Positions 397 to 29,673 of a DNA stretch of 32,000 bases are shown in pieces. Origin of the DNA: an uncultured Chloroflexia bacterium (GTDB lineage: Bacteria; Chloroflexota; Ktedonobacteria; Ktedonobacterales; JADMIN01); the NCBI GenBank assembly GCA_963718915.1, contig CAVRAI010000014.1:60001-92000 (forward strand), given 5' to 3'. Each line of letters begins with the position of its first letter. Within the stretch, counting starts at the first letter, position 1. The notes below the pieces were generated by a model. The model was given only the letters and a program-made list of their open reading frames with translations. It was not told where the DNA came from and made no database searches. Made by a program: the position numbers and the translations under genes.

Positions 397-948
397 TTAT
401 GAACGGACAGGCCCAGTAGTAAGAGGAAACGTCGAGATGGTTCCCATCACATCGAGGCGCACCATATCGCCTTCCACCTGGTAATCCCAGGGTGGCTCGA
501 CGAAGGTTGTCCAGAGCTTGTTGGCCTGGGTATCCCACGCGGCCAGTTCCAGTTCGGCGGACATCACTATTGTCTCGCCATGGCGCTGCCAGTCGTGGAA
601 GCCAGTATCGGCGCCATCTTCCCATAACCGTAGAGGCTGTTTCAGGTCATAGGCCAGGAGGCGATCTCCGGCCCCAACGAAGAGAATGTGTGTCTCTGGC
701 ACAAGCAGAATACCGGGGTGAGAGCCTGCCCAATGGTTTGGCCAATAACGCTGGATGACGCGAAGAAACGGCCAGTCAAGTCCTTTTTGTACCGCGAGAT
801 AGAAGACGTCCCAGTCGGTGTGTTCGAGGCCAAACTCCTCTGAGAGCGCCGCGGGCGGACCGTAATACTCAGGAATACTTTCCGTCATCCTCACGACATA
901 GTCGGATAGCGTCACCTGGATCACTATGTCGCCTACTTTCTTACTCAT
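397..948 (-). CDS. hypothetical Trp-rich protein (about 183 aa), last gene of the left-hand cluster
   Basis: ORF 397..972. I prefer the ATG at 948 (MSKKVGD...) because plus-strand tcat at 945-948 gives an ATGA overlap with the GNAT stop. No family recognised. Visibly lower G+C than its neighbours. Confidence 0.55.
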   Translation of the reverse strand: MSKKVGDIVIQVTLSDYVVRMTESIPEYYGPPAALSEEFGLEHTDWDVFYLAVQKGLDWPFLRVIQRYWPNHWAGSHPGILLVPETHILFVGAGDRLLAYDLKQPLRLWEDGADTGFHDWQRHGETIVMSAELELAAWDTQANKLWTTFVEPPWDYQVEGDMVRLDVMGTISTFPLTTGPVRS

Positions 949-1808
949 CCCAGCGGCAGCAGCATCTCCCACTGGGTGTGGGGTGTCGGGCAGCCCAGCG
1001 ACAGGAGCGCGTCACCGAGCGGGTCGCCCGGCGCTACATTGATCGCCCGGAGCGGCGCGCCCGGCGTCGGGGCCATCAGCGCGCGAATTAGCGCCAGCGC
1101 ATCATCGCGGCGCGCTTCGGGGGTGGCGGCACGGGAGCCGAAATCCATGATGCTGAAGCCGAGACCAGATGGCATGTGAATCAGCGTGGCCCGGATGCCG
1201 TTCCCATCCATCAGAGCGGAGGCGTGGAGCGATGGCGCCATGTGCGCCAGTGAGGGACGATCCCGCTGCCATGGCGGCGGCGGCTGATGGAGCGCGGTGA
1301 AGTCGGCCAGCGCCTGCTCGACGGTGACATCCTCTACCGAATACAGCTCTTCGGCCAGAATCGCCCCTTCGGCCAGTGGTCCGGTGAAGACCGCCAGCGA
1401 CCGCACCTCCTCGAAGCCAAGGCGGGTGTAGAGCCGCCGCGCGGGGATATTCTGCGCCAGCGCCTCTAGCTCGACGGCGGCCAACCCAAGCGTCCGCGCC
1501 TCGTTCAGCGCCGCCTCCATCAGCGGAGCCGCCTGACCGCGCCCGCGCCACTGCGGCGCAAGCCCCATCCCAGCGATCCAGCCGCGCGACCCGCGTATCG
1601 CCAGCATGACCACGCCGCTGAGCTGTCCCTGTTCATCCACCGCGACGAATGAATGATCCAGCGCGACATCGTTCACCTCGATGAGCATGCGCAATGAGTC
1701 AACGGTGTGGGTCATCGGCACAAAATAGCCTTCAAACGAGCGATTGAAGGCCTCGACGACACGCTCTGGCGCGAGCGTCTCTGCTCGCAGATAGGTCAGG
1801 GTCTCCAC
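945..1808 (-). CDS. GNAT family N-acetyltransferase (two-lobed, 287 aa)
   Basis: AcCoA-binding motif A region: VVMLAIRGSRGWIAGMGLAPQWRGRGQAAPLMEAALNEARTLG...ARRLYTRLGFEE. GTG start at 1808, 22 nt after the stop of the upstream gene. Confidence 0.75.
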   Translation of the reverse strand: METLTYLRAETLAPERVVEAFNRSFEGYFVPMTHTVDSLRMLIEVNDVALDHSFVAVDEQGQLSGVVMLAIRGSRGWIAGMGLAPQWRGRGQAAPLMEAALNEARTLGLAAVELEALAQNIPARRLYTRLGFEEVRSLAVFTGPLAEGAILAEELYSVEDVTVEQALADFTALHQPPPPWQRDRPSLAHMAPSLHASALMDGNGIRATLIHMPSGLGFSIMDFGSRAATPEARRDDALALIRALMAPTPGAPLRAINVAPGDPLGDALLSLGCPTPHTQWEMLLPLG

Positions 1809-1830: not shown

Positions 1831-2727
1831 TTAGCCGATGATATCCAGTAAGTGCAGCGGCAGGCTCACACGCTCGCCGGTATCCAGCTCGACGGTGGCG
1901 CAGCGGGTGCGCAGTCCGGCGGCGTCCACCGCCATATGCGCGGGGACATGGCGAATCATCCCCCGCATCCCACGGCGCGCGCCAGCGGCCACGCGCACGA
2001 TGGCTCCCGGCCGGAGCAGCACCGGAGGCGGCACATATTCGCCCACCGCCAGATCAGGGCGCGAGAGCAGCACCTCTGGCCGCACATTCTGGCGCGGATG
2101 TGAGGTGCCGTTGACGAGCGCCATCTCGCCCTCGCGGCGACGGAGCAGCGTCTGCATCTCCATCTGCATCGCGGCATCCCCCAGCCCCTCGGTCAGGATG
2201 ACGACCAGCGGCCCCGGCACCGCCAGCGGAATCCGCTGTTCGAGGAATGCGCTGATATCGGCACGGGCAAAGGACTCCAGTTCCAGCGCGGAGGCGCTCG
2301 CGGCGATTACACCCATCGCGCCATGGGCCGCGGCCCGTTGCAGTAATGTCAGTGGCGCACGCTGGGGATAGACGAGGATGGCTCCGCGTGGAATCAGCGC
2401 CACCGCTGGCGATTCACCCTGTGGCAGGAAAGCCAGCGGCCCAGCGGCGCTCTCGCCCAGGCCAATCAACCCCTGCAATAGCGTCGCCACGCCCTCGATG
2501 ATGATCCCCTTGCCCGGCGTCACCGCGATGACGCGGCCATCGATGCCCGCCAGCACCGGCGCGCGCCCGTTCTGCGTGGCGATCTCGGCGATAGGTTGCA
2601 GCGCACTGACACCATCTCCGGTCTGCACGCGCACCACCGCGCCCGGAGGAATCGGCCTGCGGCGACGCACCGTGATGGATGGCGCGATTGGGCGGCCCAG
2701 CGGGTAATCCAGCGCGACGTTGCTCAC
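1831..2727 (-). CDS. hypothetical protein with an N-terminal barrel-hybrid-like segment and a C-terminal KOW/SH3-like segment
   Basis: 298-aa ORF. GTG start at 2727 overlaps the stop of the upstream ATPase gene (GTGA at 2724-2727). The N-terminus (GAVVRVQTGDGVSALQPIAEI...LAGIDGRVIAV) resembles lipoyl/hybrid barrels. The C-terminus (GAIVRVAAGARRGMRGMIRHV...VELDTGERVSLPLHLLD) is KOW-like. Domain calls are by eye only. Confidence 0.6.
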   Translation of the reverse strand: MSNVALDYPLGRPIAPSITVRRRRPIPPGAVVRVQTGDGVSALQPIAEIATQNGRAPVLAGIDGRVIAVTPGKGIIIEGVATLLQGLIGLGESAAGPLAFLPQGESPAVALIPRGAILVYPQRAPLTLLQRAAAHGAMGVIAASASALELESFARADISAFLEQRIPLAVPGPLVVILTEGLGDAAMQMEMQTLLRRREGEMALVNGTSHPRQNVRPEVLLSRPDLAVGEYVPPPVLLRPGAIVRVAAGARRGMRGMIRHVPAHMAVDAAGLRTRCATVELDTGERVSLPLHLLDIIG

Positions 2728-4538
2728 AATTCGTTCTCCCCACGAAGCGCCTTCCGCCAGGCGCGCAACTGTTGCACGCGCATCTCAGGATCGGACGGCA
2801 GGAGTAGCGGACGCCCACGGGCGTCGACAATCAGGCCGAGAACGCCTCCCTCGACCGGCTCGCTCGACCGCGCGTGCTGGCCCGGCCCCAGGCCAATATC
2901 CACATTCGGCGCTGGATAGAGCGAGAGCAGCACGCGGTCGCCGGGAGCCACCGGCAGCCGCACGAGCGTGCCACTGGCAATCTCCGCCTCCTCCTGCCGC
3001 CCATCCAGAAATTCCATCACAACGCGCAGCGCCAGTTGGCCCTCAGGCGCGTCGCCATGGATCGAGATGGCGGAGCCGAGCAACAGCGGCACGGCGTCGG
3101 TGCTGGAAAGCGCCGCCGCGATATCGGGCGAGACCATCGCCAGGTTGCCGATCATACCAGCAATCTGCGCGCTATCGAGCACCAGCGAGGTGATGCCCCG
3201 TGGCTGGAGGCCATCCAGCAGGACTAGCGCGGCGTCGGCGGGATGGGCGACATGCGCCAGCACGCCCCCCGTGCCGAGCACGATATCCATCGGGTGCAGG
3301 CCCGCCATCCGGGTGCCGGGCGCGTGCATCGCCAGCCGGATGGCTTCGCGGGCGAGCGCATACTGGATTTCGAGCGCGAGTGGTGTCGCTGGCAGCAGAC
3401 GCGGGCGCAGCATGTGAGTCAGGACGTATTCGCGCAGATCATCCTCATCGATCGGCGCGGCGATCCAGCGGAGGATGCTGTCGATGCCCACAGCGCGCGC
3501 CAACTGTGCGCTGCCCGCGCCAACGCCCGCCGTCGGATGCACCGCGGGCAAAAACTCACCCTTGGCGGTGGCTCCGGCCAGTTCGGTCGAGCTCGCGCCG
3601 ACATCCACCGCGACGACATTCATCTGAAAATGATGCGCCAGGAAACGCGCCACACCACCCAGCGAGGTCACCGTGGCCAGCGGGGGCGTCGCCACCATAC
3701 GACGTAATGCCGCGTATCCGGGCGCCTCGCGCAGCACACAACTCTCGTAGAGCGCGCTCACGGCTCGTGTCAGGGGCGCCAGCGTCGACGGCGAGAGCGC
3801 CTCGACACTCTGCGCGTTCGTGCGCCCTTGTAGCGTCGTGGCGACGACCTGCGCGTCAGACGGCGCGCCGCTGAAAATGACTGGGAGGCCCGGCGGACGC
3901 GGGTAGGAGACATCCATCGGGGTTGGCTGGAGCATATCAATTGCTCGCACGACTGACTGCGCGGTGTTGGCAATCGCGTTGCCGGGCAGCTGCGTTGGCG
4001 ATCCAACAATCAACGCCGCATGCGGCTGAATCGCGCGCAGACTCGCGGCGAGGCGGTGCAGGTCGCTCTCGGAGAGCGGCGCATCGGGTGGTGGCAGTTG
4101 GATCGTCTCGAGCTGGATGAACAGTCCGCTGAGCGCGCGCTGTAAGAGCATCGCCAGCGATTCGCGTCCAGGCCCAAGCGTCATCAGGCGCATTGGCCCC
4201 CCGGCGCTCGATACCAGCACGGCGAGGTCTACCCCTGCGCCATCCTCATCCTCAGGCTGAATTGGCTGGCCCGCGCGCATCAGGATGCGGCCGGTGATCC
4301 GCTCGATCTCACCCATGGCGTTGCGCACGCCGAGCATGATATCGGCCTGGGGCGCGGCGAGCGTCGTGGGAACGCTGACGCTCGCCAGCATCCGGTAGCG
4401 ACTCTCCACCAGGCCCACCAGCGCCGCCTTGGTAAAAGCTGACCCGCAATCAAGCAGCAGCAGCGAACGCGCGGCGCCCGGCTGACGACCGCGCCCAGCA
4501 TCCGGCGACTGCGTCGCATTACTCGTGGCGCCCAACAC
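2724..4538 (-). CDS. GlmL/MutL-like ASKHA (actin-fold) ATPase, 604 aa, with a C-terminal extension
   Basis: Phosphate-1 motif LLLLDCGSAFTKAALVG, phosphate-2 motif VVAVDVGASSTELAG and adenosine motif IVLGTGGVLAH, as in the glutamate mutase L (GlmL) family. AAGGAGG lies 5 nt upstream of the GTG at 4538. Confidence 0.75.
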   Translation of the reverse strand: MLGATSNATQSPDAGRGRQPGAARSLLLLDCGSAFTKAALVGLVESRYRMLASVSVPTTLAAPQADIMLGVRNAMGEIERITGRILMRAGQPIQPEDEDGAGVDLAVLVSSAGGPMRLMTLGPGRESLAMLLQRALSGLFIQLETIQLPPPDAPLSESDLHRLAASLRAIQPHAALIVGSPTQLPGNAIANTAQSVVRAIDMLQPTPMDVSYPRPPGLPVIFSGAPSDAQVVATTLQGRTNAQSVEALSPSTLAPLTRAVSALYESCVLREAPGYAALRRMVATPPLATVTSLGGVARFLAHHFQMNVVAVDVGASSTELAGATAKGEFLPAVHPTAGVGAGSAQLARAVGIDSILRWIAAPIDEDDLREYVLTHMLRPRLLPATPLALEIQYALAREAIRLAMHAPGTRMAGLHPMDIVLGTGGVLAHVAHPADAALVLLDGLQPRGITSLVLDSAQIAGMIGNLAMVSPDIAAALSSTDAVPLLLGSAISIHGDAPEGQLALRVVMEFLDGRQEEAEIASGTLVRLPVAPGDRVLLSLYPAPNVDIGLGPGQHARSSEPVEGGVLGLIVDARGRPLLLPSDPEMRVQQLRAWRKALRGENEL

Positions 4539-4555
4539 GCTCGCCTCCTTGTCGC

Positions 4556-6250
4556 CTAGCCGCGTCTCAAGAACCCGAAGAACCCACCCTTGCGCTTCTT
4601 CGGCGCCTGTGCCGGTTGCTGGCGGGTCGGTTGTTGTCGGCCTCGGCGCGATGTCTCATAGCCGTCGCGGGCATCTCGCGCGGCCCGTGATCGCCCTGTC
4701 TGGCCCTCGGGCATCCGCCCGCGCTGTCCGGGTTGTCCGGGTTGTCCGGGTTGCCCGCGATGCCCATTCCGGCCGTTCTGAGCGCCATAGTCGCCATAGT
4801 CTTCGTAGGCTTGAGGGTCATTAAGGTCATTGTAGCCATCATTGCCACCGTAGCCGTTATACCCGTTCCGGCCGTTGTCGGCTCTGCCCTGGCGTCCGGA
4901 TGGATGGGCCGCATGGTCGCCCTGGCCATATCCCCCTTGAGACTCTTCACGGAGCCACCCTGGTTTCTCTCTCTCGCCCAGCGGTCGCGCCGCCTGTTGT
5001 TTGCGCGATGCCGCGCCGCGATTGGCGGTTCCGGCCTGCGACGCGCCAAAGTCGCGCTCAGCGGCCGGGTTCGCGACAGGTGGCGCCGGTACCCGGCTGG
5101 TGCGCTCGCGCGCGAGGTTGTTGTCTGGCGCCTGTGCCTCATTGCCACGCACCCATCCTGGCAGCATGGAGGGGTCGATCAAATCGGAGGCTGACCATCC
5201 CGGCTGCGCTGCCGCGCCAGCGGCAGACTGCGGCATACCGCCTTGCCGGGGGACGCCCGCCTGTCCCTGATTCCGCATCCATTCGGGGAGCGCGCTGGGG
5301 TCGACAAGCTGGTTGGCGGAGAACCCCGGCTGACCATTCATCGGAACAGGCGCCTGCTGCTGCATTGGCCTCTGCATTGGTGTCTGCATTGGTGTCTGCA
5401 TCGGCATCCCCGCGTACCCCGCTGGCGGGATGGCGTTCCCGACGGGGACAGCGGGGTATCCGCCCCAGCCTGGCGCGGCGGGGGGCGGTGGCGCGGCGAC
5501 TGGCGCCTGCGCGGGAGACGCTGGCTCATTGCGCATCCACCCCGGCAGAGCGGCCTCATCCACCAGCGATTGGGCGCGCATACCCTCGCCTCCACGCATG
5601 CCGTCGGGCGCTACCTGTCCCTGCTGGCCACCAAGCCAGGTAGGCAGGGCATTGGGATCGAGCAGCGAACTGGCGGGCATGCCACCACCAGCGAGCGGTC
5701 CCTGATAACTGCCCGCGTTCTCGATGGACGGGAATGCGTTGGCGTCGGGCCGTTGAACTGGCGGTTCCTGCGCCGGGGCGGGCGCGTAGCCACCGTATGC
5801 GCCATTGCCACCATAGCCCGGCGCGGGTGGCTGATTGGCAGGGGGATATGCGGGAGGATATGCGGGAGGATATGCGGGAGGATATGCCTGCTGGGGAGGG
5901 TAGCCCGGCGCTCCCGGTGTTCCGGGAATCGGCTGACGCTGTGTCGGCTGCGCCGAGTCCGCTGAGGCCTGGCGGAGCCAGTCGGGCAGCGCCTCCTCAC
6001 TCACAAGCTCGTTCACCGAGAAGCCCGGTCGCGCGGCTGGCTGTCCCGGCCCATACCCCGGCGCTGGTTGCTGGTACTGCTGAGGCGCCTGCGCTGGTTG
6101 CGGCGGCGCCTGATAGCCCCAGGCAGCGGCTGTTCCATCATAGCCGTTGGCCTGATACTGCTGGGCGGGTGGCGCGAATCGCTGGCCGCAACGCGGACAC
6201 GCTGGGACGGGAGCTTGAAGCGGCTGGCCACAACGCGGACAAGTTGTCAC
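4556..6250 (-). CDS. zinc-ribbon protein with a long Pro/Gln/Gly/Tyr-rich disordered region, repeated ALPxW(L/M)R motifs and a basic amphipathic C-terminus
   Basis: N-terminus is MTTCPRCGQPLQAPVPACPRCGQ (2 x CxxC). GAGGAG lies 5 nt upstream of the GTG at 6250. Has 5-6 copies of L(V/I/L)(D/S)xx(A/M)LPxW(L/M/V)(R/G) and ends in KKRKGGFFGFLRRG. Confidence 0.75.
   Translation of the reverse strand: MTTCPRCGQPLQAPVPACPRCGQRFAPPAQQYQANGYDGTAAAWGYQAPPQPAQAPQQYQQPAPGYGPGQPAARPGFSVNELVSEEALPDWLRQASADSAQPTQRQPIPGTPGAPGYPPQQAYPPAYPPAYPPAYPPANQPPAPGYGGNGAYGGYAPAPAQEPPVQRPDANAFPSIENAGSYQGPLAGGGMPASSLLDPNALPTWLGGQQGQVAPDGMRGGEGMRAQSLVDEAALPGWMRNEPASPAQAPVAAPPPPAAPGWGGYPAVPVGNAIPPAGYAGMPMQTPMQTPMQRPMQQQAPVPMNGQPGFSANQLVDPSALPEWMRNQGQAGVPRQGGMPQSAAGAAAQPGWSASDLIDPSMLPGWVRGNEAQAPDNNLARERTSRVPAPPVANPAAERDFGASQAGTANRGAASRKQQAARPLGEREKPGWLREESQGGYGQGDHAAHPSGRQGRADNGRNGYNGYGGNDGYNDLNDPQAYEDYGDYGAQNGRNGHRGQPGQPGQPGQRGRMPEGQTGRSRAARDARDGYETSRRGRQQPTRQQPAQAPKKRKGGFFGFLRRG
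4724..4757. repeat. in-frame 9-bp tandem repeat (ttgtccggg, about 3.7 units) encoding (GQP)n
   Basis: Read directly: ctgtccggg ttgtccggg ttgtccggg ttgcccg. Lies inside CDS 4556..6250. Confidence 0.9.
5360..5407. repeat. in-frame 12-bp tandem repeat (ctgcattggtgt, 4 units) encoding (MQTP)n
   Basis: Read directly: ctgcattggcct ctgcattggtgt ctgcattggtgt ctgcatcggcat. Confidence 0.9.
5844..5888. repeat. in-frame 12-bp tandem repeat (ggatatgcggga, about 3.75 units) encoding (PPAY)n
   Basis: Read directly: ggatatgcggga x3 followed by ggatatgcc. Confidence 0.9.
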
Positions 6251-6834
6251 GATACTCCTCGATTCAATAGGGCAGCGCCTGCGTGACCATCATCGTGCGA
6301 AGGGCGGCCAGTGCTAGTGGGTTATCTTTTGTGCTCTTAAACCAACAATAATTGCGATGTTCAGAATCCCCGGTGCGAGAATGTATCTCAGGCCGTGCGC
6401 CAGTGTATCACTCACGCCGTAGCCCCGCAACCCGACAGCCCTTTTGTAGCAGTGGCAATCTTCGGTCGGATCGTCGTGGGACATTCCCCTAAGCCATTGT
6501 ATCCGCTTGACACGCCAGATAGCCATCTCAGGGCGAAATTGTGACTCCCCTCATACTACGCAAGCAACGAAGCGTGCTGCCATTATGATGCCATATCTTA
6601 TTCTGCGTGGCAAGCTAGCGATACGTACCGCAAGCGGAATTCGTCAGAACTTCCAGGGTCTGCTACGCAATTTGGTACGTGCGCAAACGCTCCTTGTCTG
6701 GTACGATTACATCGAGCAAGAGAGCGTGGACGGCTCTACCTCCTTTTTCGGCTGTGCGGCGGCGTCTCGCCACGTATGGCAATGACTGTATCGTGAGCCG
6801 CCGCTCACCCTTGCCGTCGAGAGGGGGCACATCC

Positions 6835-7176
6835 ATGGCACGACGAAAGCAAGCTGTTGAGGTCGCCGCGGAGACGGAACCCGAGCAACCAAAACGACGC
6901 CGCGGACCACGCGCGGGATCAGAGAACGCGCGCCGTGGCGGCATGGCCGTCCGGGAGAAGTATGGGCCTGAGTTCTTCGCCAGGATTGGCTCGAAGGGCG
7001 GTCGTACTGTCCGCGAGCGGCGCGGTCCAGAATTTTACGCGAATATTGGGCGGCTTGGAGGCCAGACAACCCGTGATACGCTTGGTGTCGAACACTACGA
7101 GCGGATTGGTCGGATGGGCGGTCTGCGGGCGCGTCGGCGCGAGCGGGACGCGCAAGAGGCGGGCAAGTCTGAGTAG
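6835..7176 (+). CDS. KGG-repeat general stress protein (GsiB/Con-10-like)
   Basis: Three repeats of G(P/V)E(F/H)(F/Y)xxIGxxGG: YGPEFFARIGSKGG, RGPEFYANIGRLGG, LGVEHYERIGRMGG. The ATG at 6835 is preceded by gagaggggg. The longer ORF from 6679 has an implausible N-terminus. Confidence 0.75.
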   Translation: MARRKQAVEVAAETEPEQPKRRRGPRAGSENARRGGMAVREKYGPEFFARIGSKGGRTVRERRGPEFYANIGRLGGQTTRDTLGVEHYERIGRMGGLRARRRERDAQEAGKSE

Positions 7177-12987: not shown

Positions 12988-14618
12988 TTGATGAGCGTCT
13001 GCGCTGCCATGAGCGCCCAGTTCACCAGTTGCATCGGCACAATGCCCAGCGCGAGCGTGAGGATGCCCGCCAGCCCCAGGCCGATCCAGGTGACGGGATG
13101 CACTGGCGCAGGCTCCGCCGAGAGCACTTTCTGTGCGGTGGCGACACTGATGGCGGTTGCTGGCTCGGCGACGGCGACGCCGCCCGCAGAGGTTGTCACG
13201 ACCGGCTCACTGGCCGGGGCAGGCTCATCAGCTGTTACCAGCAGTGGCGCGGTGGCTGGCTCGATGAAGTACATTGCCCAGATGACACGCAGGTAGTAGT
13301 ACATGCCAAGCAGGCTGGCCAGCACGCCGATGATTGCTAACTCGACATGCGCGCCCTGCATCGCCGCGTAGAAGACGTACCACTTGCCGATAAAGCCCGC
13401 CGTCGCGGGAATGCCCGCCAGCCCCAGCATGAAGACCGCCATCAGCGCCGCCAGCGCCGGATTGCGGCGACTTAGCCCAGCGAAATCGTCCAGCGTCGTC
13501 CCCTGGCCATCGCGCCGCTCTATCGCCAGCACCACGCCGAACGCGCCGAGATTCATCACGGCATAGGTCGCCAGATAGATCAGCAGGGCCTGCAAGGATG
13601 CCTGCGTATGGGTGGCGATGGTCACCATCATGTAGCCAGCGTTCGCCACGCTCGAATACGCCAGCATCCGCTTGACATCGCGCTGGGTCACCGCCAGCAG
13701 GTTGCCGCCAACCATCGTCAGTATGGCGACGGTCCAGAAGACTGGCTCCCACTCTGGCCGGAGCGACGAGAGCGCGAAGAGAAAGACCCGCGCCAGTCCG
13801 ACGAACGCCGCGACCTTGGTGCCGACCGACATGAACGCCGTCACCGAGGTCGGCGCGCCGACGTAGACATCCGGTGTCCATGCCTGGAACGGGATCGCCG
13901 ATACCTTGAAGCAGAAGCCGACCGCCATCAGTCCCAGCGCCACCAGCAACAGCGGCCCAAACCCGGAGCCAAGTGGCGAGTCGCGATGGCTGCTCAGGAA
14001 GGCGCGAATCGCGGTGAGGTTGGTTGAGCCGGTCGCGCCATAGGTGAGCGCCATGCCATAGAGCAGGAACGCGGATGCGAACGAGCTGAGGATGAAATAC
14101 TTCATGCCCGCTTCCTGCGAGCGGCGCCGGGTGGTGATGATGGCCGAAAGGACGTAAAGGGCCAGCGAAAGCACCTCCAGCCCGATGAAGAGAATCATCA
14201 GGTTGCTGGCGGCGGACATCAGCATCATGCCCAACGCGGCCAGCAGCATCAGCGTGTAATATTCGCCCTCGTGAACAATGCCCTGACGTTCGAGATAGCC
14301 CGGCGAGAAGAGCAACGCGACGCCCACCGCGAAGAGGATGACGACATTGGCGAAGAGCGCGACACGGTCGTCGTTGACCATGCCAAAGAAGGCGTCGCCA
14401 TTGGTTCCATCCATCCAGAGCATCACCGTGGCGAAGAGCGCGCCGCCGACTCCCGCCAGCCCAATCACCGCCAGCCAGCCTTTGCGCCCGGGCACGGCGA
14501 CCAGATCGGCGAGCAGCGTCAGCAGACCCGCGACCAGTATTATCAGCTCTGGCCAGATGTGCAGCCAGTCGGTGAAGTCAGGGGTAAACGTGAATGGTGA
14601 AATAACCGCAATCGTCAT
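12984..14618 (-). CDS. nuoN: NADH-quinone oxidoreductase subunit N
   Basis: Polytopic antiporter-like subunit at the last position of the nuo order. ATGA overlap with the nuoM stop at 14615-14618. Confidence 0.92.
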   Translation of the reverse strand: MTIAVISPFTFTPDFTDWLHIWPELIILVAGLLTLLADLVAVPGRKGWLAVIGLAGVGGALFATVMLWMDGTNGDAFFGMVNDDRVALFANVVILFAVGVALLFSPGYLERQGIVHEGEYYTLMLLAALGMMLMSAASNLMILFIGLEVLSLALYVLSAIITTRRRSQEAGMKYFILSSFASAFLLYGMALTYGATGSTNLTAIRAFLSSHRDSPLGSGFGPLLLVALGLMAVGFCFKVSAIPFQAWTPDVYVGAPTSVTAFMSVGTKVAAFVGLARVFLFALSSLRPEWEPVFWTVAILTMVGGNLLAVTQRDVKRMLAYSSVANAGYMMVTIATHTQASLQALLIYLATYAVMNLGAFGVVLAIERRDGQGTTLDDFAGLSRRNPALAALMAVFMLGLAGIPATAGFIGKWYVFYAAMQGAHVELAIIGVLASLLGMYYYLRVIWAMYFIEPATAPLLVTADEPAPASEPVVTTSAGGVAVAEPATAISVATAQKVLSAEPAPVHPVTWIGLGLAGILTLALGIVPMQLVNWALMAAQTLIK

Positions 14619-18413: not shown

Positions 18414-18713
18414 CTAGCCCTTCAGCGTATTCAGCTCGTCCACGTCAATCTCGTGGCGCGCGCGGAAGATCGAGACGATGATCGCCAGCCCCACCACCAC
18501 TTCGGCGGCGGCGACCGTCAGCACCAGGAAGACGAACATCCAGCCGTCTACCGAGTTCAGGAAGTGCGCGAAGGCCATGAACGACAGGTTGACGGCGTTG
18601 AGCATCAGCTCGATGGACATGAACATCACCAGCGGGTTGCGGCGCACCAGCACGCCTATCGCGCCGATGGTGAAGAGCAAGGCGCTCACGATGAGATACG
18701 CGGTGACTGGCAT
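18414..18713 (-). CDS. nuoK: NADH-quinone oxidoreductase subunit K
   Basis: 99 aa with three TM helices and the conserved ELMLNAVNL segment. Confidence 0.93.
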
Positions 18714-18726
18714 GGTAAGCTCCCTC

Positions 18727-19263
18727 CTACTCGCGTACGAAGCGGCGGCTCATCACCACCGCTCCCAGCACCGCGATCACCAGCAGCACGCCCGTGACCT
18801 CGAAGGGAAACGAGAAGCCATGGAAGAGCGCCAGACCGAACGCCTCGGCGTTGCCAAAGCGCGCGACCGCCTGCGACAGTCCGTTGAGGCCCGCCGTCTT
18901 GGCGTCCGCGGCCAACGAGCCGTTGAGCAGGGCGATAATCAGGCCGCCCGCCAGAATGATGCCCAGGCCCAGGCCCGCGCCCCACTGCCAGCGCAGCCGA
19001 TCCGGCCCGCTGATGCCGCCGCCCTCAGGTGTGAGCATTGTCACCACGAAGAGGAAGAGCACCATCACCGCCCCGGCGTAGATGAGTATCTGAATCGTGG
19101 CGATGAACAGCGCTTCCAGCATCAGGAAAAAGAACGCCAGGCTCACCAGATTCAGAATCAGGCTGAGCATGCTGTAGATTGGGTTACGAAACGATATCAC
19201 GCCCAGCGCCGAGGCCACAGAGACGGTGGCCAGCACGAAGAAGGCGATCACAGTTGCTGTCAT
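18727..19263 (-). CDS. nuoJ: NADH-quinone oxidoreductase subunit J
   Basis: 178-aa membrane protein ([13 protein letters not shown]..., [17 protein letters not shown]) in the expected operon position. Confidence 0.9.
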
Positions 19264-19269
19264 GCGCGC

Positions 19270-19941
19270 TCAGCCCTCCCTCTTCGACTCAAGCTGCTCC
19301 GGCGTGGAGAACTCGTCGGCGGAATGAACGATGGTGGGCTGCGTCGCGGGTTCGGTCTCGGCGTCGAGCAGGATCTGCTGCTCGGCGGGCAGATTGGCCT
19401 GGCCCACCGCCGTCGCGGTCGCCTCAAGCCCATCGAAGAAGCCCTGGCGGCTGGGGATCGGCGTCGTCGTCTCCTCCGGCGGATTCGGCGACCAGTCGAG
19501 GATCGCGCCGCGCGTCGAGGTCCCTTCCGGCTCGAGCAGTTGTTCTTTATGGTAGACCAGATCATCCGGGCGCAACGACGACAGCTCGTAGATGTTTTCG
19601 AGCGTGATGGCGCCCGTTGGGCACGCCTGCTGGCAGTAGCCGCAGAAGATGCATCGCAGCAGATTCACATCGAAGATCCGGGCATAGCGCTCGCCGGGCG
19701 AGACCCGATGCTCGTCGGTGTTTTCCTCCGCCTCGATGTAGATGGCGTCAGCCGGGCACGCGCCCGCGCAGAGATAGCAGCCGACGCAGCGCTCCAGCCC
19801 GTTCTCGTAGCGGTGCAGCACATGCCGCCCGCGAAAACGCGGCGGAAGGTCGCGCTTCTCCTCAGGATAGGAGACGGTTGTTGGCTTCTTGCCCAACTCC
19901 TTGAGCGTCGTCGCCAGCCCCTTGATTATTTCCATTCCCAT
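19270..19941 (-). CDS. nuoI: NADH-quinone oxidoreductase subunit I (2 x [4Fe-4S] ferredoxin type) with an extended C-terminal tail
   Basis: Cluster motifs CVGCYLCAGACP and CIFCGYCQQACP. About 223 aa. Confidence 0.93.
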   Translation of the reverse strand: MGMEIIKGLATTLKELGKKPTTVSYPEEKRDLPPRFRGRHVLHRYENGLERCVGCYLCAGACPADAIYIEAEENTDEHRVSPGERYARIFDVNLLRCIFCGYCQQACPTGAITLENIYELSSLRPDDLVYHKEQLLEPEGTSTRGAILDWSPNPPEETTTPIPSRQGFFDGLEATATAVGQANLPAEQQILLDAETEPATQPTIVHSADEFSTPEQLESKREG

Positions 19942-19986
19942 GGGTATTCTCGCTATCTATCTCGTGAAGCCGATAAGGCATGCCCA

Positions 19987-20054
19987 CCGTTGCCTTCAGG
20001 CCACGGCGAATTTTCCCCTCATTCGCCGCGGCATGTATGCTGCGGACAGCCTCC
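19987..20054. repeat. multi-hairpin dispersed repeat, copy D (nuoH-nuoI spacer)
   Basis: Modules are ccgttgcc-ttca-ggccacgg, ggcgaat-tttcccctc-attcgcc and ccgcggcat-gt-atgctgcgg, followed by acagcctcc. The nuoH-nuoI spacer is 153 bp. Confidence 0.75.
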
Positions 20055-20094
20055 TTAAATACTGACTCGTATGTCGACTACCACTTCGCGGCGT

Positions 20095-29598: not shown

Positions 29599-29673
29599 GG
29601 TGGAGATGATGGGACTCGAACCCACGACCCCCACGATGCGAACGTGGTGCTCTCCCAGCTGAGCTACATCCCC
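29599..29673 (-). tRNA. tRNA-Ala (anticodon CGC)
   Basis: Manual fold: GGGGATG TA GCTC AGCTGGGA GAGC A CCACG TTCGCAT CGTGG GGGTC GTGGG TTCGAGT CCCAT CATCTCC A. The G3:U70 pair is the Ala identity element. The 3' end is encoded as ACC then C, so the terminal CCA is not fully encoded. Confidence 0.92.

Follow-up and report, generated by a model that had tools for sequence, protein, structure and literature searches.

The window analysed here, a 32,000-nucleotide stretch from an uncultured Chloroflexia bacterium of the order Ktedonobacterales (contig CAVRAI010000014.1), raises the question of what a long protein of low complexity does directly in front of an ATPase gene. The protein is encoded on the minus strand at 4556-6250 and carries the database label 'hypothetical protein'. 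The original prediction, made from the sequence alone, described a zinc ribbon, a recurring tryptophan block and a C-terminal tail like those of MinD and FtsA, and proposed a membrane-anchored, multivalent scaffold that might dock the ATPase encoded next to it. Comparison with its relatives indicates that this is a real, conserved gene of soil Ktedonobacteria and that it is restricted to this class. Its product may be a Ktedonobacteria-specific, membrane-tethered, multivalent adaptor for the ATPase module, with a putative partner and putative membrane binding, a reading to which we give about an even chance.

The motif protein and its family

The gene starts with a GTG codon preceded by a GAGGAG ribosome-binding site (RBS), and P (89), A (84), G (81) and Q (61) account for 56% of the 564 residues encoded. 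Every string quoted in the original prediction was recovered in the translation. The features of the protein are given below, with identities to the query taken across the orthologues of the window's clade.

4556..6250 (-), gene of the zinc-ribbon, multi-motif and tail protein, 564 residues, from the list of open reading frames (ORFs) and the translation
6176..6250 (-), N-terminal Cys4 zinc ribbon, residues 1-25, CPRCG-x9-CPRCG
5969..6025 (-), motif copy 1, residues 76-94, GFSVNELVSEEALPDWLRQ, identity 0.88
5627..5683 (-), motif copy 2, residues 190-208, GMPASSLLDPNALPTWLGG, identity 0.92
5528..5584 (-), motif copy 3, residues 223-241, GMRAQSLVDEAALPGWMRN, identity 0.88
5270..5326 (-), motif copy 4, residues 309-327, GFSANQLVDPSALPEWMRN, identity 0.75, 55.7 bits against the motif profile A1 of the family
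5144..5200 (-), motif copy 5, residues 351-369, GWSASDLIDPSMLPGWVRG, identity 0.93
4943..4978 (-), degenerate short copy, residues 425-436, GEREKPGWLREE, identity 0.72, about 10 bits against the profile
4559..4603 (-), basic/aromatic tail, candidate membrane-targeting sequence, residues 550-564, PKKRKGGFFGFLRRG, identity 0.87

The N-terminus reads MTTCPRCGQ-x9-CPRCGQ, and its cysteines form two CxxC knuckles (C4-x2-C7 and C18-x2-C21) in the pattern of a zinc ribbon. The predicted Cys4 ribbon is present in the translation, though the Pfam models score just under threshold. Zn_ribbon_3 (PF13248, a model of 26 positions) gives 24.5 bits on residues 1-25 against a cut-off of 27, and PF13240 gives 16.6 bits against 25. 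Otherwise the protein has only sub-threshold partial matches in Pfam, to DUF7012 (positions 8-30 of 62) and SnAC, and no match in NCBIfam.

Five stretches of the protein fit the pattern G[FMW]sAxxL[VIL]DxxALPxW[LMV]R, with tryptophans at W91, W205, W238, W324 and W366, and a degenerate sixth, EREKPGWLRE, contains W432. The core LPxW[LMV][RG] occurs five times, against a mean of 0.0008 in 20,000 composition-preserving shuffles, none of which contained more than one. The 12 residues preceding LPxW, which were excluded from the definition of the core, are 45% identical between copies, as compared to 9.6% (maximum 26%) when 12-mers are drawn at random from this protein. The recurring tryptophan block described in the original prediction is therefore real and far beyond chance.

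A homology search with the window protein found 52 relatives, and all those with a taxon name belong to the Ktedonobacterales (phylum Chloroflexota). The zinc ribbon is retained even at about 30% identity, together with a basic/aromatic C-terminus (RGGWRRLFGRR, for example) and several [LMIV]PxW[LMIV] motifs. Over 440 units centred on PxW the consensus is G-[FML]-S-A-x-[SD]-L-[VIL]-D-[EP]-x-A-L-P-x-W-[LM]-R. The repeats also have flavours that depend on their rank. In distant orthologues the rank 2 flavour 'LLDPNALPxWLGG' recurs at the same rank, and the rank 3 flavour 'SLVDExALPxWLRAxP' lies 33-36 residues beyond it. The late flavour 'SASDLIDPxxLPxWV' (copy 5 in the window) is kept across clades, and the last repeat of other clades, a short 'ELPPWL[RQ]', is the counterpart of the degenerate sixth copy in the window. 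These flavours and the spacing between copies 2 and 3 are kept between clades that share only about 30% identity.

Among the orthologues of the window's clade, identity to the query is 0.75-0.93 over the five full blocks and the tail, which are free of gaps, and 0.44-0.69 over the linkers, which are gapped and vary freely in length. Such conserved, gap-free islands in variable, gapped linkers are what short linear motifs in disordered proteins classically look like. Three in-frame tandem repeats of DNA lie within the gene, at 5844-5887 (12 nt x 3.7, coding for (YPPA)n), 5360-5405 (12 nt x 3.8, (MQTP)n) and 4725-4757 (9 nt x 3.7, (GQP)n). They are likely sources of variation in linker length between strains.

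The motif model suggested with the original prediction was built as profile A1 (68 repeat units of 30 residues) and searched against 1.84 billion representative proteins. It matched 314 proteins at E <= 1e-3, 238 at E <= 1e-10 and 138 at E <= 1e-30. The motif was found in all orthologues, single repeat positions are conserved across clades, and the 150 best of the 314 matches have 4-16 matched stretches each. Nearly all matches have one build, in which a zinc ribbon comes first, 4-16 motifs follow and a basic/aromatic tail ends the chain; transmembrane segments are absent. The N-terminal CxxC...CxxC is present wherever the N-terminus is complete, and gene calls that lack the ribbon regain it when read from the first start codon. 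All named members belong to the Ktedonobacterales or Ktedonobacteraceae. Since one copy scores 55.7 bits, carriers of a single copy in other architectures would be detectable, yet the total is tiny, and the motif is practically exclusive to the zinc-ribbon/tail architecture. Against the sequences of the PDB the profile gave only chance matches (E about 1). This pattern of conservation argues that the motif is real and under selection.

The tails of the family fall into four types. The window clade has KKRKGGFFGFLRRG, with the protein in the window ending in APKKRKGGFFGFLRRG, and a second type is RGGWRR[LF]FGR[RK]. The third, SGVFAKLKRMLGFGR, belongs to long forms of 1100-1360 residues with 15-16 motifs, and the Ktedonobacteraceae have K[KR]G[FL][FL][ED][AT][IL]R[DES][WF][FL]S[RK]. 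At least three K/R and at least three large hydrophobic residues are found among the last 18 residues in 169 of 187 family members. The hydrophobic moment (muH) of the tail is within the top 5% of the protein's own segments in 144 of the 187, and a transmembrane-like segment was found in none. The Ktedonobacteraceae tails, for example KRGFLETIREWFSR and KKRGLFGAFLDWLSR, are predicted as a clear amphipathic helix, and those such as KRGFLETIREWFSR have a muH of 0.63-0.64 that is reached by only 2% of shuffles. The best 8-mer of the window tail has a muH of 0.65, near the 0.69 of the E. coli MinD tail. The C-terminal amphipathic helix of MinD is an established weak, valency-dependent membrane anchor (PMC6803595).

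The ATPase and barrel/KOW genes

The motif-protein gene is followed on the same strand by three further genes.

2724..4538 (-), GlmL/MutL-family ASKHA ATPase with an extra C-terminal beta-domain, 604 residues (Pfam PF13941)
1831..2727 (-), barrel/KOW protein, 298 residues (AlphaFold2 (AF2) model with a predicted local distance difference test score (pLDDT) of 82)
945..1808 (-), GNAT acetyltransferase (Pfam Acetyltransf_1)

A gap of 17 nt separates the stop codon of the motif-protein gene from the AAGGAGG-GTG start of the ATPase gene, and the start of the barrel/KOW gene overlaps the ATPase stop by 4 nt. The coupling holds in related loci. From the side of the motif protein, a GlmL-like ATPase is always the next gene (L001, L002, L009, L010, L011 and L013), and from the side of the ATPase, on long contigs, a zinc-ribbon/motif/tail protein is always encoded upstream (L014-L016). 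A metagenome scan gave 18 loci with an ATPase at least 40% identical, and in 17 of them the motif protein or its tail is encoded immediately before it. Next after the ATPase comes the barrel/KOW gene in all coupled loci except L013, where the third gene (14059-14445) encodes a 128-residue Cys-rich protein in its place.

The ATPase shares with the GlmL/MutL protein of glutamate mutase a Pfam MutL (PF13941) match over residues 27-479 (119.6 bits against a threshold of 27, E = 1.9e-34). It also shares the ASKHA nucleotide-binding motifs, phosphate-1 (D30/G32/T36), phosphate-2 (D312/G314/T318) and adenosine (G424/G425), which are invariant in 36 homologues. It differs in scoring 29.5 bits against the 475-bit cut-off of the NCBIfam GlmL equivalog and in having a further C-terminal domain. 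No glutamate mutase genes were found in the window or in related loci, and the ATPase is labelled 'glutamate mutase L' in the databases without a mutase gene nearby. The AF2 model (pLDDT 83) has an ASKHA core followed by a confident extra beta-domain of 120 residues and a terminal helix. Foldseek matches of this model in the PDB are acetophenone/acetone carboxylase, hydantoinase-type subunits, Hsc70/DnaK, diol-dehydratase reactivase, PilM and FtsA, all with low template modelling (TM) scores of 0.2-0.3. A search by sequence found no solved structure for either the ATPase or the 298-residue protein. One relative of the ATPase (P0079), 85% identical to that of the window, is labelled 'Nitrososphaerota archaeon' in NCBI. 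Its contig is probably mis-binned, since all other named relatives are Ktedonobacterales.

The 298-residue protein has no family match in Pfam or NCBIfam. Its AF2 model consists of an N-terminal beta-domain resembling a barrel sandwich, an alpha/beta middle domain and a C-terminal KOW/SH3-like barrel. The C-terminal barrel matches the KOW domains of Spt5 (TMt 0.78-0.85, root-mean-square deviation 1.3-3.0, about 60 residues). No fold match covers the whole protein, and the matches by domain are KOW and a weak one to the ZNRF3 ectodomain. Homologues give weak matches to Biotin_lipoyl, RnfC_N and NqrA_N (barrel-sandwich hybrid), and one homologue has a Pfam KOW entry, with a faint one in a second. 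The labels 'ATPase' and 'barrel/KOW' used for these genes in the original prediction are right at the level of fold, as judged by Pfam MutL, the AF2 models and the Spt5 KOW matches.

A scan of genome contigs with the single ATPase sequence gave close relatives only, and a metagenome scan seeded with an alignment reached distant ones. These are 23-31% identical to the ATPase and still have the C-terminal domain, and the barrel/KOW protein is kept downstream in almost all of their loci. In eight loci (L075, L079-L081, L083, L084, L087 and L092) the two proteins are in a single reading frame of about 1000 residues. One of these fusions, and the only one so confirmed by Pfam, is L079:4842-7862 (1007 residues, MutL domain at residues 54-529). 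Fusion in distant loci is good evidence that the proteins encoded at 2724-4538 and 1831-2727 act as one unit.

Two kinds of neighbours recur near the distant ATPases, which have them instead of the motif protein. A protein of 100-130 residues with the conserved hydrophobic segment PAIFFLE..KPLS[YF][IV]G[GS]Q is found in 13 loci, including L042:4442-4864, L045, L046, L047, L050, L053, L056, L065 and L067. A polytopic membrane protein of about 216 residues (L063:4297-4944) is encoded beside a protein of about 1100 residues (L063:944-4297) in 12-13 loci. Neither Pfam nor NCBIfam has a family for the small hydrophobic, the polytopic or the 1100-residue neighbours. Their presence points to a widespread membrane-associated system. 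The ATPase-barrel/KOW pair is thus an old, widespread and uncharacterised module with a membrane context, and the zinc-ribbon/multi-motif protein is a Ktedonobacteria-specific first gene in the upstream slot of this module.

Right after the barrel/KOW gene there is a GNAT acetyltransferase homologue in the window clade as well as in L002, L015/L026, L029, L030/L031, L032 and L039, and none in this place in L001, L014 and L016. The GNAT gene may be a facultative fourth member of the operon. In eight loci of the clade with the RGGWRR tail (L002:3-842, L014:1375-2238, L016:641-1504, L022, L023, L027, L034 and L037), an ATPase of the ParA/MinD superfamily (Pfam CbiA/AAA_31) that falls short of every NCBIfam equivalog cut-off is encoded a few genes upstream of the motif protein. 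In L014 and L016 it is followed by an overlapping gene for 145-149 residues. The window has neither of these genes. PADLOC and PHROGs were negative for the motif protein, the ATPase and the 298-residue protein, and an origin as a defence system or phage was dropped on these grounds.

The 430-nt gap upstream of the motif-protein gene has no Rfam match and only one weak sigma-70-like match (6613-6585). Beyond this gap and divergent from the operon, 6679-7176 (+) encodes a small hydrophilic protein (Pfam LEA_5, 50 bits against a cut-off of 40) of the stress or desiccation type, with repeated GG..R/EFY..IG.KGG units. Much of the remaining window, from 12984 to about 28300 (-), is a respiratory complex I (nuo) cluster with NuoN/M/L-type antiporter subunits, NuoG-like, NuoF (51-kDa) and NuoD (49-kDa) genes, and is unrelated to the motif protein. 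Opposite the nuo genes is a 526-residue ORF (18478-20058, +) with no Pfam family, which may be a real gene or an antisense artefact of GC-rich DNA. One tRNA gene lies at 29601-29673 (-) (Rfam RF00005, 64.9 bits).

Proposed role and competing explanations

In the proposed role, the protein would be cytoplasmic and largely disordered, and its basic/aromatic tail would hold it to the inner side of the membrane as a short amphipathic anchor like those of MinD and FtsA, helped by electrostatic attraction. Its P/Q/G/A-rich chain would be a flexible spacer, and each of the 5-16 motifs would be a short linear site that holds one copy of a folded partner. The likeliest partner would be the GlmL-family ASKHA ATPase of the same operon, the barrel/KOW protein, or both. 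The motif protein would in this way concentrate several copies of the ATPase module at the membrane. An adaptor is suggested because the gene always directly precedes the ATPase gene, and the operon structure, with the short gap and RBS before the ATPase gene and the overlap between the ATPase and third genes, supports it. For the membrane-anchored scaffold originally proposed, the architecture and the conservation of motif and tail speak in favour, and the suggested link to the ATPase is one of genomic adjacency. Two of the three failures named with that proposal, a tail not kept in orthologues and a motif missing from them, were checked and neither came true, so that the proposal is partly supported. 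The membrane proteins beside the distant modules and the peptide-binding precedent of PilM and FtsA also count in favour of the adaptor.

Several observations weigh against this role. Adjacency does not tell which protein of the operon, if any, binds the motif, and the barrel/KOW protein, or something not encoded in the operon, would be just as good a candidate for the partner. Carboxylase/hydantoinase-type enzymes and chaperone-like reactivases, the nearest structural relatives of the ATPase, are not known to be recruited by peptides. The motif protein is absent beside all the ATPase relatives at 23-31% identity, so that a motif-binding site on the ATPase-barrel/KOW pair would be a lineage-specific gain. 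The tail of the window protein (GGFFGFLRRG) is glycine-rich, and its last 12 residues have a muH of 0.33, reached by 44% of shuffles. The amphipathic MinD/FtsA-like tail of the original prediction stands as a conserved feature of the family that is clearly amphipathic in the Ktedonobacteraceae, but over 12 residues the window's own version does not rise above shuffles. One orthologue (L034, upstream ORF 2703-4892) has a purely polybasic tail, GRRKRKRRRN, without hydrophobic residues, and in L025 the ORF that precedes the ATPase lacks a recognisable tail. A literature search gave no publication of relevance on PF13941, on Ktedonobacter cell division or FtsZ, or on GlmL.

Other explanations account for part of the same evidence. 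The Trp/Leu/Arg motifs might bind each other or the protein's own zinc ribbon, as stickers joined by spacers, and build a condensate or mesh at the membrane in which other factors, the ATPase among them, are organised non-stoichiometrically. Long P/Q/G/A/Y-rich spacers with evenly scattered aromatic/arginine motifs, a copy number that ranges from 4 to 16 between clades and a freely variable linker length would all fit. However, about 56 bits over about 19 residues, with flavours specific to rank, is far above typical low-specificity stickers, and self-assembly leaves the strict one-to-one adjacency with a particular ATPase gene unexplained; we regard it as unlikely. The motif protein might instead be a client, with its motifs as recognition elements through which a chaperone-like GlmL-family ATPase remodels, releases or turns over a disordered protein in an ATP-driven manner. 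The same gene adjacency would be expected, and both the placement of the ATPase in the GlmL family by Pfam and NCBIfam and its fold matches to Hsc70/DnaK and diol-dehydratase reactivase are consistent with this. The low TM-scores of all these matches count against it, as does the wide occurrence of the module without the motif protein, which therefore was not the ancestral substrate. The conserved membrane-type tail and the zinc ribbon also fit an adaptor better, and a client role seems rather improbable.

It is also conceivable that the ATPase polymerises or assembles and that the multi-motif protein nucleates or tethers it from the membrane, as a bacterial counterpart of the tandem-WH2 actin nucleators. 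This is a long shot, and so is its extension, in which the barrel/KOW partner and, in some clades, the ParA-like ATPase would complete a new membrane-associated cytoskeletal or positioning system in the mycelial, spore-forming Ktedonobacteria. Tandem-WH2 nucleators such as Spire, Cordon-bleu and VopL/VopF have several motifs of about 20 residues joined by disordered linkers and act on an actin-fold ATPase. Spire joins its WH2 repeats with a zinc-finger membrane-binding module, and the WH2 nucleators are eukaryotic or effector proteins. The motif has no visible LKKT/V and no sequence similarity to WH2. A still fainter prospect is that [AL]-L-P-x-W-[LM]-R imitates the C-terminal peptide of FtsZ, and that the protein is a multivalent ligand of FtsA, SepF or other receptors in division or septation. 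The FtsZ consensus is D/E-I/V-P-x-F/Y-L-R/K (bioRxiv 10.1101/2023.08.29.555414), and the E. coli FtsZ tail is DYLDIPAFLRKQAD (PMC4117426). The core matches it by residue class (aliphatic, P, x, aromatic, L/M, R/K at five core positions), the FtsZ tail binds the actin-fold protein FtsA, and a ParA/MinD-superfamily ATPase gene is nearby in eight loci. But the motif profile gives the E. coli FtsZ tail -2.5 bits, as compared to 55.7 bits for a true copy, and no FtsZ chain was found with the profile among the PDB sequences at E <= 10. With this negative profile test, the likeness to the FtsZ peptide is confined to residue classes at five positions and is no evidence of relatedness. Further, the motif has an invariant Trp where FtsZ has F/Y, its conserved upstream half GFSAxxLxD has no counterpart in FtsZ, and its 5-16 copies are internal, whereas the FtsZ peptide is single and C-terminal after a linker. 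Finally, the gene could be a functionless low-complexity artefact of one lineage or a mis-called ORF, given the 66-70% GC of this stretch, the many overlapping spurious ORFs on both strands and the short DNA tandem repeats within the gene. Hundreds of homologues down to about 30% identity retain the frame, the zinc ribbon, the motifs and the tail, the islands of conservation coincide exactly with the motifs and tail, and an RBS and operon spacing are present. The conservation data already refute this explanation, and its likelihood is practically nil.

Likeness to known systems and significance

The proposed membrane-tethered adaptor has partial parallels in several systems. ZipA has a membrane anchor, a long P/Q-rich flexible linker and a binding element, and acts as a tether for a cytoplasmic machine. 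Its anchor is an N-terminal transmembrane helix, and a single globular C-terminal domain binds a peptide. The layout of anchor, linker and binding element is common to both, with the polarity reversed, since here the tethered protein carries the peptides, and many of them. ZipA is mentioned as an FtsZ anchor in papers with FtsZ tail data (PMC4117426; bioRxiv 10.1101/2023.08.29.555414). The tails share with those of MinD and FtsA a short C-terminal basic stretch followed by a large hydrophobic/aromatic one and the lack of a transmembrane segment. The best-window moments in the family (0.65-0.91) are within the range of the MinD and FtsA peptides. There is no sequence homology, and here the tail ends a disordered chain of about 500 residues, whereas in MinD and FtsA it is attached to a folded ATPase. 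The glycine-rich version of the window clade is not demonstrably helical.

There is precedent in PilN-PilM and FtsN-FtsA, where a short cytoplasmic peptide of the membrane-anchored PilN or FtsN is bound by its ASKHA partner (PMC7613929). As in those pairs, a putative membrane-associated protein is encoded beside a protein of the ASKHA fold and would contact it through a short conserved linear peptide, and the ATPase model has PilM and FtsA among its fold matches. PilN and FtsN differ in being bitopic and having a single peptide, as opposed to 5-16 copies and a putative amphipathic-tail anchor, and the window ATPase differs from PilM and FtsA in belonging to the GlmL/hydantoinase branch. By analogy, the arrangement would be of a known kind, a membrane-tethered disordered adaptor that presents linear peptides to an ASKHA protein. 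New are the motif itself, its multivalency with 5-16 copies, the pairing of a putative amphipathic-tail anchor and a zinc ribbon, and the putative partner family.

Long disordered proteins of bacteria with many copies of a linear motif of high information are rare, and the known pairings of a peptide with an ASKHA protein (FtsZ-FtsA, FtsN-FtsA and PilN-PilM) use a single peptide. This family offers a testable case, with a 19-residue peptide, a candidate receptor next door and a 15-residue candidate membrane anchor. The finding also highlights a wider two-gene module, composed of a GlmL-like ATPase with a C-terminal beta-domain and a barrel-sandwich/KOW protein that are sometimes fused. The Ktedonobacteria are abundant in soil and have an actinomycete-like mycelial growth, and their cell biology is essentially unknown. 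A membrane adaptor specific to this class would be a reasonable entry point.

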